This document shows, piece after piece, positions 2,571 through 7,225 of a stretch of DNA of 7,225 nt (the first letter of the stretch is position 1; every line of letters begins with the position of its first letter). The notes under the pieces were generated by a model that saw only the letters and a list, made by a program, of their open reading frames with translations, did not search any database and was not told the origin of the DNA. Source of the stretch: Promethearchaeota archaeon (GTDB taxonomy: Archaea; Asgardarchaeota; Thorarchaeia; Thorarchaeales; Thorarchaeaceae); assembly GCA_027031765.1 (NCBI GenBank), contig JALVPN010000003.1:14422-21646 (forward strand), in the 5' to 3' direction. The position numbers and the translations under genes were made by a program.

Positions 2571-2706
2571 TGAGGATGGTGTCACTAGGGGGGCTCATGG
2601 GGGGTGACCGGGGAGTGGGAGACTATCTGGCCCACGGATCTCCCGGGTGCACGTCACGAGGGACAGTAGACCTTTTAGTCAGGAAACAGATAGGGTGTCG
2701 AGCACA

Positions 2707-3900
2707 ATGAAGGACCTGGTCGTAGTCGGTGCTGGGCCTGCGGGCAGTGTGTGTGCCATGCATGCTGCAAGGGCGGGACTGGATGTCATGGTAGTGGACA
2801 AGGCGCAGTTCCCGCGGTTCAAGTCATGTGGGGGCGCCCTGTCACGCAGGACACTCAAGAACTTGGGCAGCCGGGCCTCGAAAGCGGTCAACTGTGAGGC
2901 CACCGGGCTCGTCGCATACTCCCCGGGCCTGAGGAGGGTTGTGCACGATGTGCACGAGCCAGCATACTTTGTAGTCCGGAGAGAGTGGGACTACCAAGTG
3001 CTCCTAGACGCCCAGGACGCAGGGGCAGAAGCGGTCACAGGCACGACTGTGAAGGATGTCAGGCCCCATGACGACACCGTCGATGTGGTGCTTGGAACGG
3101 GTGACACCGTAGCGTCCAGGTACGTTGTCCTTGCAGACGGCACGGGTCTCAAGTCATACCGCAAACGGCTCGGTTTCACACAGCCGTACGAGTACATGGC
3201 CAGGACAGTCTGCACTGAAACACCAGTGGACGAAAGGGTCGTGGACGAGATCACACAGGGACAGCACAGGCTGCACATCTTCTTTGGCATTGTCCCCCGT
3301 GGGTACGGCTGGCTGTTCCCGAAGAAGGGCTATCTGAATGTCGGTATTGGGTTTGGTAACGAGCACCCACCGGGCAAGAACCAGTTCGAGGTGTTTGACG
3401 ACTTTGTCAGGCTCCTCAAGGGGCGGGGCATGCTCCCAGAAGACTTTGACACCGCCCCCAAGAGGCCTGCTGCAATCCCATTCAAGCGCCCATTCGAGCC
3501 CACTGGCATAGGCCACGTGTTGTTGGCAGGAGATGCAGGGGGCTTCGTCTCACCGGTCACAGGAGAGGGGCTATACTATGGCACGACCACAGGAAGACTG
3601 GCTGCGGAGACCATCCGTGACAGTCTGGACGAGGCCCTTGACACGGGTATTGTGGAGAGTTACCGGCAGCGCTGGATGGACGACTTTGGCAGGGACATGA
3701 CCGGCGCGGGACTGTCCCTGGCCGACACGGTCTACAAGTCGACCAGGAGGATGGAGCTTGTTGTCCGGTTGATGACTGCAGACGAGGTGGTACGCCGGGT
3801 AACAGCTGAGGCAATACTCGGCTACGTTACGTATGGCGAGGCGCGTTCCCAGATACTCAGGAGGGCACCATGGGCACTGGTCAAGTCACTGAGAGTCTAG
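2707..3900 (+). CDS. Geranylgeranyl reductase family NAD(P)/FAD-dependent oxidoreductase
   Basis: 397 aa from the ATG at 2707 (MKDLVVVGAGPAG). Contains Rossmann GxGxxG, KSCGG, ADG, GYGWLFPK and GDAGGFVSPVTGEG motifs typical of GGR/DGGR. Substrate cannot be determined from sequence alone. Confidence 0.92.
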   Translation: MKDLVVVGAGPAGSVCAMHAARAGLDVMVVDKAQFPRFKSCGGALSRRTLKNLGSRASKAVNCEATGLVAYSPGLRRVVHDVHEPAYFVVRREWDYQVLLDAQDAGAEAVTGTTVKDVRPHDDTVDVVLGTGDTVASRYVVLADGTGLKSYRKRLGFTQPYEYMARTVCTETPVDERVVDEITQGQHRLHIFFGIVPRGYGWLFPKKGYLNVGIGFGNEHPPGKNQFEVFDDFVRLLKGRGMLPEDFDTAPKRPAAIPFKRPFEPTGIGHVLLAGDAGGFVSPVTGEGLYYGTTTGRLAAETIRDSLDEALDTGIVESYRQRWMDDFGRDMTGAGLSLADTVYKSTRRMELVVRLMTADEVVRRVTAEAILGYVTYGEARSQILRRAPWALVKSLRV

Positions 3901-4511
3901 TAGTCAACAAAGCCGAGCTGTATGTCTTCGAACAGCTCGGGCATGTGCTTCTGGACAAAGGATACTGGGACTTCCTTCCGCACCATGACCATTATGAACT
4001 CGCACCGCTCGTCACCGGTCGCCTTACACTTCACCTCACGGGCGAGGGTGTGGAAGGCACCGTCATGCATCAGGGCTGCCCAGGTCTGACTTGCACCCTG
4101 ATATGCACCAGCCGGGACCTGACAGAACCGATGGGGGAACCGGATGTTGCGACAGAACGGACAGTCGTCATCGGCCCACCGGTAGATGTATACGGTCTCA
4201 CCATCAATCTCTACGGTCTCATAGCTCTGCTCTGTCGGCGACTTGCCGGCGAACATGATCCATGCGGCCTCACCATAGGCTGGGATGCGCTCATGGTCAG
4301 GGTCGAGATGGGCTGACAGTTCGATCATGAACTCGTGCCCCAGTGACATGCCGCCCTCGAACACTCGCTGCAGCGCCTTACGCGGGCCCATCACCTCGGC
4401 GAGGCTCTCGACGAGCAGCTGGTTGAGTCTCGTGACGGTCAGTGTTAGCACCTTTTCACTGCTGAACTTCTTGACCTTTGAGGCCTGTACCAGTAACCAG
4501 TTCTTTACCAC
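3897..4511 (-). CDS. Stand-alone V4R (vinyl-4-reductase) domain protein
   Basis: 204 aa with CPFC (C117/C120), FC (C130), REVKCKATGDERCEF (C162/C170) and an N-terminal GxxxG helix (GMSLG). GTG start overlaps the upstream stop (TAGTG). SD GGTGGTGA upstream. Confidence 0.85.
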   Translation of the reverse strand: MVKNWLLVQASKVKKFSSEKVLTLTVTRLNQLLVESLAEVMGPRKALQRVFEGGMSLGHEFMIELSAHLDPDHERIPAYGEAAWIMFAGKSPTEQSYETVEIDGETVYIYRWADDDCPFCRNIRFPHRFCQVPAGAYQGASQTWAALMHDGAFHTLAREVKCKATGDERCEFIMVMVRKEVPVSFVQKHMPELFEDIQLGFVDY

Positions 4512-4966
4512 TACTCAATCACCACCTGCACCGACTCGATTTTACCGAGCCGGACAAGTTGTTCACATAATATCTTCACACGCATGGTAGCAACCCCCAG
4601 CACCTGGGCCAACTCGTCGACACTGCGTTTCCCGTCTACAAGGGCGAGAACCTGGATCTGGAACGAGTTCAGGTCATCCAGGTCCACTTGTCCCTTCATG
4701 GGAACTGGGACGAACCGCCGGGTGAGGGGTTTCCGGGCAGCCTTCGCCTCCTCAGCGCGTTCGACAATATTGGAACCGCTGATTGCGCGCAGGCGATACT
4801 CCTTGTCCACGAAAAGCGTTATGGCGTGCTCAGGGTCACCATGGGTCACAACTATGGGCACGGGATTGCGAAGAGAGTACCTCACCTGAGCGTCCCGGAT
4901 GTTCACCACTAAGAATTCATGGCAGATGGGACATTCGAACTTGAGTTGTGCCAATGTGACATCCAT
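4511..4966 (-). CDS. Hypothetical protein: putative Zn-binding N-domain (CxxC...HxxxxH) plus C-terminal winged helix
   Basis: 151 aa with CPIC (C12/C15) and HGDPEH (H42/H47). The C-terminal QVLALVDGKRSVDELAQVLGV..VKILCEQLVRLGKI is a wHTH pattern. Confidence 0.75.
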   Translation of the reverse strand: MDVTLAQLKFECPICHEFLVVNIRDAQVRYSLRNPVPIVVTHGDPEHAITLFVDKEYRLRAISGSNIVERAEEAKAARKPLTRRFVPVPMKGQVDLDDLNSFQIQVLALVDGKRSVDELAQVLGVATMRVKILCEQLVRLGKIESVQVVIE

Positions 4967-4995
4967 CCTCTAGTGGACCGTGGTACCGCTATGTA

Positions 4996-5535
4996 TCACG
5001 AGGTGCCTTGCGCCTGTGGCAGGAGAGCAGCCCAGATCTCGCGTTCAAGGTCATCGAAGCCTATGCCCTCCTTGGCGCTTACTAGTACAAAGGGCATGTT
5101 GTGCTGATGCGCAAAACTCTTTGCCTCATCGACCATCACCATGGGCCTCAAATCCACTTTGTTCGCGACCAGAATTCTGCGACTGGCCGGTATCTCACTT
5201 GTCATCTCCAGCCACTCGCCAAGTTCGAGGAATGACTCGTAACGTGTGATGTCGAACACCACCAGCGCAAGGTGTGCACCGGCAACCATATCAGACTGGA
5301 AGAACCTGAACTGTGGCTGGCCACCAAGGTCGAACGATACTATTCTCATGGAAACCCCGTGTTCCGTGTCAACGGCCGTCCAGGACTCAACATCAAGTCC
5401 AACAGTCATCTCAGGGTCTATGAACCGTTTCATGATGAGCCGCGTTGCGATAGAGGTCTTTCCGACGCCTCCTGCACCAACAAGCACGAGCTTCTTTACC
5501 GTGGATGCCAGGGACCTGCTGTCAGTAGTTGCCAA
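4996..5535 (-). CDS. Rab-like / Ras-superfamily small GTPase
   Basis: G1 GAGGVGKT, G2 T (MTVGLDV), G3 DLGGQ, G4 NKVD, G5 SAK. Preferred start is the TTG at 5535 after SD GAGGTG (179 aa); the ORF track starts at 5565. Confidence 0.95.
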   Translation of the reverse strand: MATTDSRSLASTVKKLVLVGAGGVGKTSIATRLIMKRFIDPEMTVGLDVESWTAVDTEHGVSMRIVSFDLGGQPQFRFFQSDMVAGAHLALVVFDITRYESFLELGEWLEMTSEIPASRRILVANKVDLRPMVMVDEAKSFAHQHNMPFVLVSAKEGIGFDDLEREIWAALLPQAQGTS

Positions 5536-5582
5536 TCCAAGCGACACCTCTGTGACATTATGCAATAGAGAAACAGAATCCG

Positions 5583-5596
5583 AAATAATACCTTTG
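5583..5596 (-). promoter_or_regulatory. BRE/TATA-like promoter of the GTPase cluster
   Basis: Minus strand CAAAGG-TATTATTT, about 50 nt upstream of the TTG at 5535. Confidence 0.55.
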
Positions 5597-5745
5597 TGCG
5601 TGTGTAGGTCGGAGGAGCACCTGCGGACCGACAGCGCCCTAAGAGGCCGGTCCCGGGTGGCTGGCGATGACCAGAGGACAGAGGACCAACGGCGGGTCTT
5701 GCCAGACGAGGCCGCATGTCGACAGACAGAATAGAGAAAGAGAGG

Positions 5746-5823
5746 TGGCGGGACCGCCCGGATTCGAACCGGGGATTACCAACTCCGGAGGCTGGCGCCT
5801 TATCCAAGCTAGACTACGGCCCC
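5746..5823 (-). tRNA. tRNA-Arg(CCG), intronless, CCA encoded
   Basis: Same 78-nt cloverleaf as 2455..2532, but the anticodon loop is CTCCGGA. Confidence 0.98.
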
Positions 5824-6650: not shown

Positions 6651-6719
6651 GGCTCAGACCTAGGAGGCATGACACACCATGTCAAGAAAAACGTTCGCCA
6701 TTGTCGCAGGACTTTTTCG

Positions 6720-6732
6720 ACAGAGTTATAAC
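6720..6732 (+). promoter_or_regulatory. TATA-like promoter of the rightward gene
   Basis: ACAGAG-TTATAAC, about 45 nt upstream of the ATG at 6776. Confidence 0.5.
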
Positions 6733-6775
6733 AGCATCACGGAGTGGGTCGTGGGAGTCCCGAGGTGAGTTGGCG

Positions 6776-7225
6776 ATGGTCAACAGAATGAGAGCACTGG
6801 AGCGCGAGCTCGCACGGCTGCGGCGGGTGCAGAACCCACATCAGGTGGACTTCAGGAGGATGCGCAGACTGAGACGGGCCCGCACATCGTACTGGCGGCT
6901 ACGAAAGAGGCTGTATGCTGGGACTGTTGGGACAACAGAGATGCGTGGCGAGAAGAGGAAGGAGAAGGAAAAGGAAAAGGCAGCACGCAGGGAACGGAAG
7001 AGGCCAGCACCCGTGGAAGAGGAGCCAGAGAACGTAACACTTACTGAGGACGAGATTGAGGCAATCTACGGGTACGACGAGGACGTAGAGGAAGAAGTAG
7101 AGGAAGAAGTAGAGGAAGAGGAAGAAGTAGAGGAAGAGGAAGAAGTAGAGGAAGAGGAAGAAGTAGAGGAAGAGGAAGAAGTAGAGGAAGAGGAAGAAGT
7201 AGAGGAAGAGGAAGAAGTAGAGGAA
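6776..7225 (+). CDS. Hypothetical protein with Arg/Lys-rich N-terminus and poly-Glu (VEEEEE)n tail (partial, runs off the window edge)
   Basis: ATG at 6776 with SD GAGGTGA at 6762-6768, open for 150 codons to the edge: MVNRMRALERELARLRRVQNPHQVDFRRMRRLRRARTSYWRLRKRLYAG...EIEAIYGYDEDVEEEVEEEVEEEEEV... Confidence 0.8.
   Translation, partial: MVNRMRALERELARLRRVQNPHQVDFRRMRRLRRARTSYWRLRKRLYAGTVGTTEMRGEKRKEKEKEKAARRERKRPAPVEEEPENVTLTEDEIEAIYGYDEDVEEEVEEEVEEEEEVEEEEEVEEEEEVEEEEEVEEEEEVEEEEEVEE
7085..7225 (+). repeat. Coding tandem repeat: 2 x 12-bp GTAGAGGAAGAA, then 6 full and 1 partial 18-bp GTAGAGGAAGAGGAAGAA
   Basis: Units start at 7085, 7097, 7109, 7127, 7145, 7163, 7181, 7199 and 7217. The 18-bp copies are exact and in frame. 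Confidence 0.97.

Follow-up and report, generated by a model that had tools for sequence, protein, structure and literature searches.

The small GTPase, zinc/winged-helix ("middle") and V4R genes described here form a conserved unit, and the zinc module of the middle protein is a widespread, undescribed Asgard partner of one small-GTPase group. It is this module, not the V4R protein, that tracks small GTPases across Asgard archaea. The window, i.e. the whole stretch of Thorarchaeia DNA analysed (7,225 nucleotides), carries the three genes on the minus strand at positions 3897–5565 (ORF calls and translations), with the following features:

5566–5600, minus strand: upstream region with an AT-rich GGTATTATTT box, a candidate archaeal TATA element (read from sequence)
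4996–5565, minus strand: small GTPase gene, 189 aa, TTG start (ORF, Pfam)
4967–4995, minus strand: intergenic spacer of 29 nt, from the GTPase stop to the middle-gene ATG (read from sequence)
4511–4966, minus strand: middle gene, 151 aa, ATG start
4733–4954, minus strand: zinc module, residues 5–78 of the middle protein (AF2 model, conservation)
4514–4720, minus strand: winged helix-turn-helix, residues 83–151 of the middle protein (DUF742-like, NPRL-like)
3897–4511, minus strand: V4R gene, encoding a Bet3/TRAPPC3-fold protein, 204 aa, GTG start
2647–3900, plus strand: geranylgeranyl-reductase-family flavoprotein gene, 417 aa (NCBIfam TIGR02032)

Layout and conservation of the unit

The co-directional arrangement of the three genes, with a 29-nt gap followed by a 1-nt TAGTG overlap, was confirmed in the sequence as originally predicted, base 4511 belonging both to the TAG that ends the middle gene and to the GTG that starts V4R. 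This overlap suggests that the middle and V4R genes are translationally coupled. A Shine-Dalgarno-like AGAGG motif lies in the spacer directly 5′ of the middle-gene ATG, a GGTGGTGAT motif lies upstream of the V4R GTG start, and the AT-rich box is located ~15–28 nt 5′ of the GTPase TTG start. From the sequence, a single promoter serving all three genes is plausible; a promoter/terminator scan of the window, using a tool that covers sigma-70 sites only and does not model archaeal promoters, returned nothing relevant. The sequencing runs listed as containing the window comprise one hydrothermal-vent DNA run, perhaps the one from which the window came, and no RNA run. Two tRNA-Arg genes flank the unit in the window, but a tRNA-bounded cassette was rejected because neither is found at orthologous loci; the thioredoxin and carbonic-anhydrase-like genes of the window were rejected as parts of the unit, as they are not alongside it in relatives.

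In the orthologue set, the GTPase-middle-V4R order and strand are kept in 9 of the 11 genomes or contigs that could be judged (the window, G046, G124, G143, G005, G299, G063, G069 and G086), covering Thorarchaeia-type relatives and one other Asgard family, with V4R identities of 39–69% among the triad-keeping loci. This recurrence implies that the arrangement is not due to chance, and supports the proposal of a conserved co-directional three-gene unit. G299 has two tandem copies, the whole triad being duplicated as a unit. Conservation is highest for the middle-V4R pair, whose genes overlap or directly adjoin in every locus: in one orthologous locus (L009) the adjacent GTPase has been lost, and in another (L004/L005) the GTPases are divergent. 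The orthologues are limited to a narrow clade (11 of 301 Asgard genomes); a pattern-based search of genome contigs reached 7 loci only, and the wider family was seen by profile search of genomes. A literature search found no paper describing the GTPase/zinc-winged-helix/V4R layout, in agreement with the earlier statement that no operon of this three-part layout has been characterised.

Zinc module and small GTPases

The GTPase matches Pfam Ras (3e-26) and has G1–G5 motifs of Ras/Rab-like type in the orthologue alignment (GAGGVGKT, T54, DLGGQ, NKVD and SAK). Its best PDB sequence matches are Rab33B, Rab1A and Ypt1 at 1e-17, with Thor-Rab (7ezb) at 2e-15, and the best 60 of 624 PDB matches are all Rab-type chains (Rab, Ypt, Sec4), such that its description as Rab-like holds. 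The protein contains zero cysteines and hence no prenylation site, lacking the C-terminal cysteine prenylation motif of Rabs; Thor-Rab is likewise reported to be without a prenylation cysteine (PMC10933270). The source genome encodes 25 Ras-family genes in 2.95 Mb, and in a tree a branch with support 98/92 sets the operon-type GTPases apart from 11 further Ras-like paralogues encoded there. Each of the two own-genome GTPases most like the operon type has a zinc-module gene after it.

In the AF2 model of the middle protein (pLDDT 88), the zinc module comprises two β-hairpins carrying CPIC (C12, C15) and HGDPEH (H42, H47), together with a third strand pair and a helix. C12, C15, H42, H47 and D54 are invariant across 17 diverse copies of the module, giving a C2H2 signature, CxxC...HGxPxH...D...R, which no Pfam model covers. 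The module is present in 212 of 301 Asgard genomes (~70% of those sampled), with as many as 11 copies per genome, and a set of 1.84 billion proteins contains 661 representative clusters of it. Among 40 zinc-module loci, hand-picked from a ranked list and including related genomes that are not independent, 13 have a small GTPase within 300 nt (12 on the same strand; families f1, f4, f9, f12, f13 and f21) and 27 do not. Fusions occur in unrelated lineages: 9 of 112 representative clusters join the module to V4R (best 1.6e-18), and one cluster, P0145, joins it to a Ras domain. A wide structural search with the middle protein listed matches covering the winged helix (83–151) and none covering residues 1–80; thus the zinc-module fold was matched to no known GTPase-binding fold, nor to longin, in a search effective for the winged helix only. 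An Atlas feature search with residues 1–80 returned only unnamed archaeal clusters of 71–75 aa, which at 0.75–0.76 are a lead only.

Proposed role of the unit and alternatives

The reductase gene next to the unit, which the original prediction did not mention, matches TIGR02032 with 222 bits (cut-off 158.8) and is convergent with the V4R gene, their stop codons overlapping by 4 nt. In 11 of 12 sources an orthologue of this reductase gene lies next to the V4R gene, with identities of 50–60% (39% in L028), compared with at most 38% for the own-genome paralogues of the operon-adjacent reductase. The reductase is convergent in most genomes and so cannot share a transcript with the unit there; it is co-directional in L004/L005 and L028. 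In Hermodarchaeia the order is LarA-like, middle-like, V4R, HMG-CoA reductase in 19/19 loci from two genera, with no GTPase gene within the ~1.5 kb flanks of the middle-V4R loci.

The winged helix has a likeness to DUF742 (PF05331) that was likewise absent from the original prediction; 10 of 11 middle-protein orthologues match this family (best 3.4e-6), all below the 27-bit cut-off, with the window protein sub-threshold at E 0.026. It also resembles the NPRL2/3 winged helices, its top structural matches being GATOR1 and SEA-complex chains. The DUF742 family includes CvnC and MfpC, of which MfpC has been shown experimentally to be a GEF of the GTPase MfpB (PMC11343762). Since the DUF742 match is sub-threshold, and HTH_47 and Sigma70_r4 match as many orthologues, the winged helix could simply bind DNA. 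Elsewhere in the source genome, Bet3-like genes also come after winged-helix proteins (L112), one of which, of 327 aa, matches the middle-protein winged-helix profile at 4.6e-8. A Roadblock domain suspected by eye in this protein was rejected, since a Pfam search to E 0.05 gave no Robl_LC7 match.

The V4R protein of the window matches Pfam V4R (PF02830) at 6.5e-5 (23.4 bits; cut-off 31 bits), as do all 18 V4R-protein orthologues at E up to 1 (best 9.7e-7), and it has a Bet3-family fold (AF2 model, pLDDT 85; Foldseek and VIA searches). The glycines of its GMSLG helix, highlighted in the original prediction, are conserved in the orthologue alignment (G53 and G58 invariant, G54 at least 90%). C130, E159, C162 and C170 are invariant and correspond to the MopR/PoxR-type zinc motif (E-x2-C-x7-C plus an upstream Cys), the E...C...C part aligning to MopR (7vqf) in a HMMER alignment whose own E-value is not significant.

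We favour, with confidence falling a little short of even, a reading in which a GTPase switch, a zinc/winged-helix adaptor and a hydrophobic-ligand-binding Bet3-fold subunit are tied to isoprenoid metabolism. The three genes would encode a conserved small-GTPase signalling unit with the middle protein as its hub. Its zinc module would engage the GTPase, as suggested by a family encoded directly after one Rab/Ras-like GTPase group, and its winged helix would be a protein-contact or nucleotide-exchange surface, as in MfpC, and not mainly a DNA reader. The V4R protein would bind the ligand of the unit, a hydrophobic molecule that is probably an isoprenoid, and the output may concern isoprenoid lipid metabolism or membranes. 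We infer the binding partners, the ligand and the isoprenoid output of the unit, the isoprenoid nature of the ligand from the neighbours alone (the reductase paralogue here, HMG-CoA reductase in Hermodarchaeia). A complex prediction for the GTPase, middle and V4R proteins, run without controls, scored 0.00 and argues neither for nor against binding. It is possible, if unlikely, that the middle and Bet3-fold proteins act on a dedicated Rab-like GTPase as its ligand-gated GEF or GAP, coupling isoprenoid-lipid status to the G-protein switch, and that the C2H2 module is a new Asgard-wide small-GTPase-binding domain. If true, such a ligand-gated regulator would be an archaeal counterpart combining elements of TRAPP (the Bet3 fold) and of GATOR1/conservons (the winged helix).

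A winged helix is combined with a V4R domain in MsvR and, less strictly, in the XylR/DmpR/MopR sensors. This pairing favours an alternative that we regard as somewhat unlikely, namely a split MsvR-type transcription factor in which the winged helix would bind DNA and V4R would sense a ligand or redox state, thereby controlling the neighbouring isoprenoid gene, with the GTPase as an accessory input or mere neighbour. The conserved middle-V4R core and the GTPase-free Hermodarchaeia flanks are consistent with such a factor, as are the basic winged helices of Hermodarchaeia (net charge +4 to +5) and the profile matches to Lrp-type regulators in the PDB (0.002–0.003). However, the winged helices of the Thorarchaeia-type orthologues, with net charges of −3 to +3, are not consistently basic, the top-ranking Pfam family is DUF742, which has a GEF as its characterised member (PMC11343762), and it is left unexplained why the zinc module recurs next to GTPases and is fused to one. 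Further, the CPFC pair, on which the description of the V4R protein as "Cys-rich" was based, is not conserved, and the invariant Cys/Glu set (cysteines C130, C162 and C170) is that of the MopR/PoxR structural zinc site (PMC10933270); redox sensing is thus not indicated, making the redox-sensor role once suggested for this protein unlikely.

That the V4R and winged-helix proteins regulate the GTPase in a TRAPP-like manner, as originally predicted, is upheld with respect to the conserved unit and weakened in its TRAPP-like part. A proto-TRAPP-like exchange factor, in which the Bet3-fold and middle proteins would contact the Rab-like GTPase and catalyse exchange as the TRAPP core does on Rab1/Ypt1, appears distinctly improbable. 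The conserved gene order, the presence of the TRAPP substrates Rab1A and Ypt1 among the best solved-structure matches of the GTPase, and the other Bet3-like genes that follow winged-helix proteins in this genome (L112) all point towards it. In TRAPP, however, most of the catalytic site is contributed by the longin subunits TRAPPC1 and TRAPPC4, and four subunit types are needed (PMC10152722), whereas no longin or sedlin family is found by Pfam among the window genes. Moreover, just one of the 18 V4R orthologues matches Pfam TRAPP (E 0.037), the Hermodarchaeia V4R partner has no adjacent GTPase, and it is the zinc module, not V4R, that tracks GTPases.

Finally, a metabolic helper, in which the V4R protein would carry a hydrophobic prenyl compound that the adjacent reductase uses or makes, and the GTPase and middle protein would be unrelated genes retained by drift within one clade, is highly improbable: no neighbour is more constant than the reductase paralogue, which is co-directional in the two most divergent loci, IMG annotators name the V4R proteins "predicted hydrocarbon binding protein", and shared ancestry within the narrow clade could inflate synteny, but the genes flanking beyond the four vary between loci while the four stay together, and the duplication of the triad in G299, the zinc-module fusions to V4R and to GTPase in unrelated lineages and the middle/V4R start/stop overlap all argue against it.

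Comparison with known systems

The small GTPase/zinc-winged-helix pair resembles the conservons (CvnA–D) and the Mfp operon (MfpB GTPase, MfpC DUF742 GEF, MfpD Roadblock GAP), in which a small GTPase shares one operon with a small DUF742-type winged-helix protein, the match here being sub-threshold; the Mycobacterium DUF742 protein accelerates nucleotide exchange (PMC11343762, PMC9769811, PMC4316618). In contrast to the conservons, the operon here has no histidine kinase or Roadblock gene, neither family being found by Pfam in the window or in the called genes of three loci (L001, L002 and L004). Conservon GTPases belong to MglA group 2 (PMC4316618), whereas sequence matches place the GTPase here as Rab/Ras-like (DLGGQ, best matches Rabs) and not in that group. 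The zinc module on the middle protein and the Bet3-fold protein are additional to the conservon arrangement.

For the V4R protein, the closest known systems include the V4R sensor domains of MopR/PoxR/DmpR, MsvR and the archaeal MJ1460. It differs from MsvR in that the winged helix and V4R are on two genes, with a zinc module in addition, and in that CPFC is not conserved. Compared with the TRAPP core and the crystallised Thorarchaeota TRAPPC3 (PDB 7yh2, 7yh3; PMC10933270), the V4R protein is only 14–20% identical and is longer (204 aa versus ~157), with additional elements at both termini; the genes beside it include no longin partner. A V4R-profile sequence search of the PDB gave no significant match to any chain, TRAPPC3 included (MopR at E 1.5), and the window protein has no match to Pfam TRAPP (PF04051).

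Asgard NPRL2-like winged-helix families have been described (Liu et al., 10.1101/2020.10.19.343400), and as in the Roadblock/NPRL2-like pairs a winged-helix protein is encoded directly before the Bet3/V4R-fold gene(s). Here, however, the N-terminal domain is the C2H2 zinc module rather than Roadblock or longin, the GTPase lies inside the unit, and the prenyl reductase is a constant neighbour. The Asgard LAMTOR1-like/Rab-like GTPase/DENN operon (Liu et al., 10.1101/2020.10.19.343400) is likewise a conserved neighbourhood joining a Rab-like GTPase to candidate regulators, although the partners here are a zinc module, a winged helix and a Bet3 fold, not Roadblock and DENN.

Asgard archaea have dozens of eukaryote-like small GTPases, the regulators of which are mostly unassigned. 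In MK-D1, GTPase genes are generally located outside operons with TRAPPC3, Roadblock or longin (Tran et al., PMC10933270), which makes it hard to match GTPases to GEFs and GAPs. In contrast, the GTPase gene here does sit with a Bet3-fold gene, and the locus provides a specific, conserved case in which a Rab-like GTPase is paired with a Bet3-fold protein. It also connects the system with isoprenoid enzymes (prenyl reductase, HMG-CoA reductase), the regulation of which is poorly understood in archaea, and by pointing to an unnamed zinc module as a recurrent Asgard GTPase partner it names testable regulators.

Conservation of the GTPase/Middle/V4R Unit

Features of the window (coordinates, strand, description)
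2455-2532, minus: tRNA-Arg gene (GCG anticodon)
2647-3900, convergent with the V4R gene (4-nt overlap): geranylgeranyl-reductase-family gene ("the reductase")
3897-4511, minus: V4R gene, 204 aa, GTG start, Pfam V4R 6.5e-5, under the cut-off
4511-4966, minus: middle gene, 151 aa, only a weak Pfam match (HTH_47)
4996-5565, minus: small GTPase gene, 189 aa, TTG start, Pfam Ras 3e-26
5746-5823, minus: tRNA-Arg(CCG) gene, just upstream of the GTPase gene

Reading of the sequence bore out exactly the three co-directional genes, 29-nt spacer, and TAGTG stop/start overlap of the original prediction, with Shine-Dalgarno-like motifs preceding both the middle and V4R genes. Named relatives of the window's proteins belong to Candidatus Thorarchaeota MAGs, and the same DNA is present in a hydrothermal-vent metagenome run. 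Two tRNA-Arg genes (GCG, CCG) bracket the four-gene block of reductase, V4R, middle, and GTPase genes; since the orthologous blocks of ten relatives lack flanking tRNAs, save for unrelated tRNA-Gly genes at locus L007, the bracket is specific to this genome. The far end of the window (6701-7225, plus strand) holds an open-ended ORF whose head is Arg-rich; regular Glu/Val repeats (EEEEVEE units) make up its long tail, which continues past the window edge, and the long ORFs on the opposite strand are artefacts of the same repeat.

V4R orthologues (E < 1e-50) were found in only 11 of the 301 sampled Asgard genomes, 10 from the window's own family and one from a second family, with more copies on metagenome contigs. 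Beyond the window, tblastn places GTPase, middle gene, and V4R in this order and on one strand in eight genomes (G046, G124, G143, G005, G299, G063, G069, and G086), V4R identity falling as low as 39%; outside the triad and the reductase the neighbours vary from locus to locus. The layout deviates in three cases. The Thorarchaeota-type genome G299 carries two complete triads, one on each side of the reductase gene (locus L011, 4939-9558); its second V4R copy shares no more than 35% identity with that of the window, so the unit was duplicated in full, and long ago. At L009 (2189-5233) a 1014-aa helicase/restriction-like ORF occupies the GTPase position directly upstream of the middle gene, perhaps through an insertion in which the GTPase gene was displaced; at L004/L005 two GTPase genes lie upstream in divergent orientation. 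Just upstream of the G086 triad (L051, 2776-4335), a 519-aa Gtr1/RagA-like GTPase (Pfam 3.4e-23) and another, weak Ras-like ORF (E 5.7e-4, under the cut-off) are encoded, so that GTPase genes are clustered at this locus.

A Zinc Module Associated with Small GTPases

The AF2 model of the middle protein (pLDDT 88, pTM 0.48) has two domains. Residues 5-78 are modelled as two β-hairpins bearing the CxxC and HGxPxH motifs, followed by more strands and a helix, the predicted shape being as expected for a C2H2 zinc ribbon; residues 83-151 form a winged helix. In a profile search, full-length relatives were found in only three families; the first ~70 profile positions, taken alone, have matches in 212 of the 301 Asgard genomes, and a single genome can carry as many as 11 copies. 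This zinc module is covered by no Pfam family, yet a search of 1.84 billion representative proteins recovered 661 clusters at E ≤ 0.001 and 156 at 1e-10. Cys12, Cys15, His42, His47, and Asp54 are invariant in 17 diverse copies. The module occurs as a stand-alone protein of 70-120 aa, at the N terminus of proteins of 120-330 aa, and at the C terminus of proteins of about 200 aa. V4R is the recognisable domain to which it is most often fused in a set of 112 longer representatives (9 clusters, best 1.6e-18); one representative, P0145, joins the module (29-86) to a Ras-family GTPase (98-258). The zinc-module family is widespread in Asgard archaea and linked to both GTPases and V4R. One zinc-module-V4R fusion (P0127, 241 aa), on a metagenome contig (L102, 1641-4224), adjoins genes for a multi-4Fe-4S ferredoxin-domain protein and a thioredoxin.

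In 13 of 40 zinc-module loci, hand-picked from many genera and including related genomes that are not independent, a small GTPase gene lies within 300 nt, on the same strand in 12 of the 13 and usually directly upstream; L114 and L120 are near misses. The 13 loci span six families, labelled from few named cluster members, Atabeyarchaeia and Hermodarchaeia among them. Because the window's genome has only 25 Ras-family matches in 2.95 Mb, chance adjacency would amount to a few per cent. Of the GTPases in this genome, the two that most resemble the operon's type each have a zinc-module gene next downstream. At L017 (contig C165, 897-2464) a second GTPase gene of this type precedes one for a stand-alone zinc module of 83 aa, and after that comes a 256-aa protein without a Pfam match that, judged by eye, looks hydrophobic and multi-pass. 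A maximum-likelihood tree, which left out the multidomain or partial GTPases C55, C101, C57, C216, and C90, places 11 other Ras-like paralogues of the genome in a supported clade (98/92) with all module-associated GTPases outside it; the support is for that clade, not for a single clade of module-associated GTPases.

The V4R Partner and Its Isoprenoid-Enzyme Neighbours

The V4R protein has no close relative by sequence among solved chains (PDB sequence search), and only one of 18 orthologues touches Pfam TRAPP. In an alignment of these 18, Cys130, Glu159, Cys162, and Cys170 are invariant, and the CPFC pair (Cys117, Cys120) is often replaced by Ser, Asn, or Val. The E-x2-C-x7-C segment aligns to the same motif of MopR, with an alignment E-value that is itself not significant; Thor-TRAPPC3 and PoxR have a zinc site at the equivalent place, and proteins of this type have been argued to bind small hydrophobic ligands (Tran et al., PMC10933270). 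The variable CPFC pair, the invariant Glu/Cys set, and these precedents make a structural zinc site with a ligand cavity more likely than a redox switch, as judged from sequence; of the proposed "ligand or redox sensor", the ligand half is therefore favoured and the redox half is not.

A second cluster in the same genome (L112, contig C41, 4003-6176) encodes a 327-aa protein, two repeats of which match the winged-helix profile of the middle protein (4.6e-8), and, downstream, a TRAPP-like protein (157 aa, Pfam TRAPP 6.9e-6) and a V4R protein (184 aa, 6.9e-10). The window triad looks like a variant of this winged-helix and Bet3-fold theme. In contrast to the C41 cluster, whose contig has no GTPase gene, the triad has the zinc module as the N-terminal domain of its middle protein and a GTPase gene inside the unit. 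Also at L112 (1955-2458, plus strand), a TRAPPC3-like gene (Pfam TRAPP 3.9e-9, over the cut-off) is broken by one in-frame TAG, which could reflect a pseudogene, a sequencing error, or a recoded codon.

An orthologous reductase paralogue adjoins the V4R gene in 11 of 12 sources; at the two loci that diverge most, it follows the V4R gene directly and runs in the same direction. These V4R-adjacent reductases are 50-60% identical to that of the window (39% in L028), compared with at most 38% for the eleven other paralogues of the genome, implying that one specific paralogue travels with the unit. With twelve geranylgeranyl-reductase-family paralogues in all, the genome has a greatly expanded set for an archaeon of 3 Mb. 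All 19 loci examined in Hermodarchaeia (L049, 3164-6966; L062-L080; family f12, two genera) share one gene order, namely LarA-like (lactate-racemase family), middle-like (159 aa), TRAPPC3-like V4R (169 aa), HMG-CoA reductase (Pfam 7e-118), with no GTPase gene found within flanks of roughly 1.5 kb. With the reductase constant in Thorarchaeia and HMG-CoA reductase constant in Hermodarchaeia, the middle-V4R pair sits, by gene neighbourhood, beside isoprenoid-pathway enzymes in two lineages; the Hermodarchaeia arrangement suggests the pair as a candidate regulator or partner of the key enzyme of the mevalonate pathway.

The Middle Protein as a Candidate Adaptor

The simplest account of all the links found is that the middle protein is an adaptor: its zinc module would go with the GTPase, the protein would pair with V4R as a Bet3-fold ligand-binding subunit, and isoprenoid lipids would be the biological context. 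Of the rivals, a split MsvR-like transcription factor is the strongest: the winged helix could be a DNA binder, and within the unit conservation is highest for the middle-V4R pair, its core. A proto-TRAPP exchange factor, raised in the original prediction as "possibly TRAPP-like", still has the Bet3 fold in its favour; against it, Pfam detects no longin family among the window's genes, and the TRAPP active site is built from longin subunits (PMC10152722). A purely metabolic carrier ranks behind the adaptor as an account of these links.

By analogy with MfpC, the winged helix of such an adaptor may be a surface for regulation or nucleotide exchange. Its best Pfam family is DUF742 (10 of 11 orthologues, best 3.4e-6, every score under the cut-off), the family of CvnC/MfpC; for the small GTPase MfpB, MfpC has been shown to act as a GEF and the Roadblock protein MfpD as GAP (PMC11343762, PMC9769811). 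A zinc-ribbon domain is likewise already known from a bacterial small-GTPase circuit, where that of GltJ recruits MglB and raises GAP efficiency on MglA (PMC11135422), a likeness to the Asgard zinc module that is one of analogy only.
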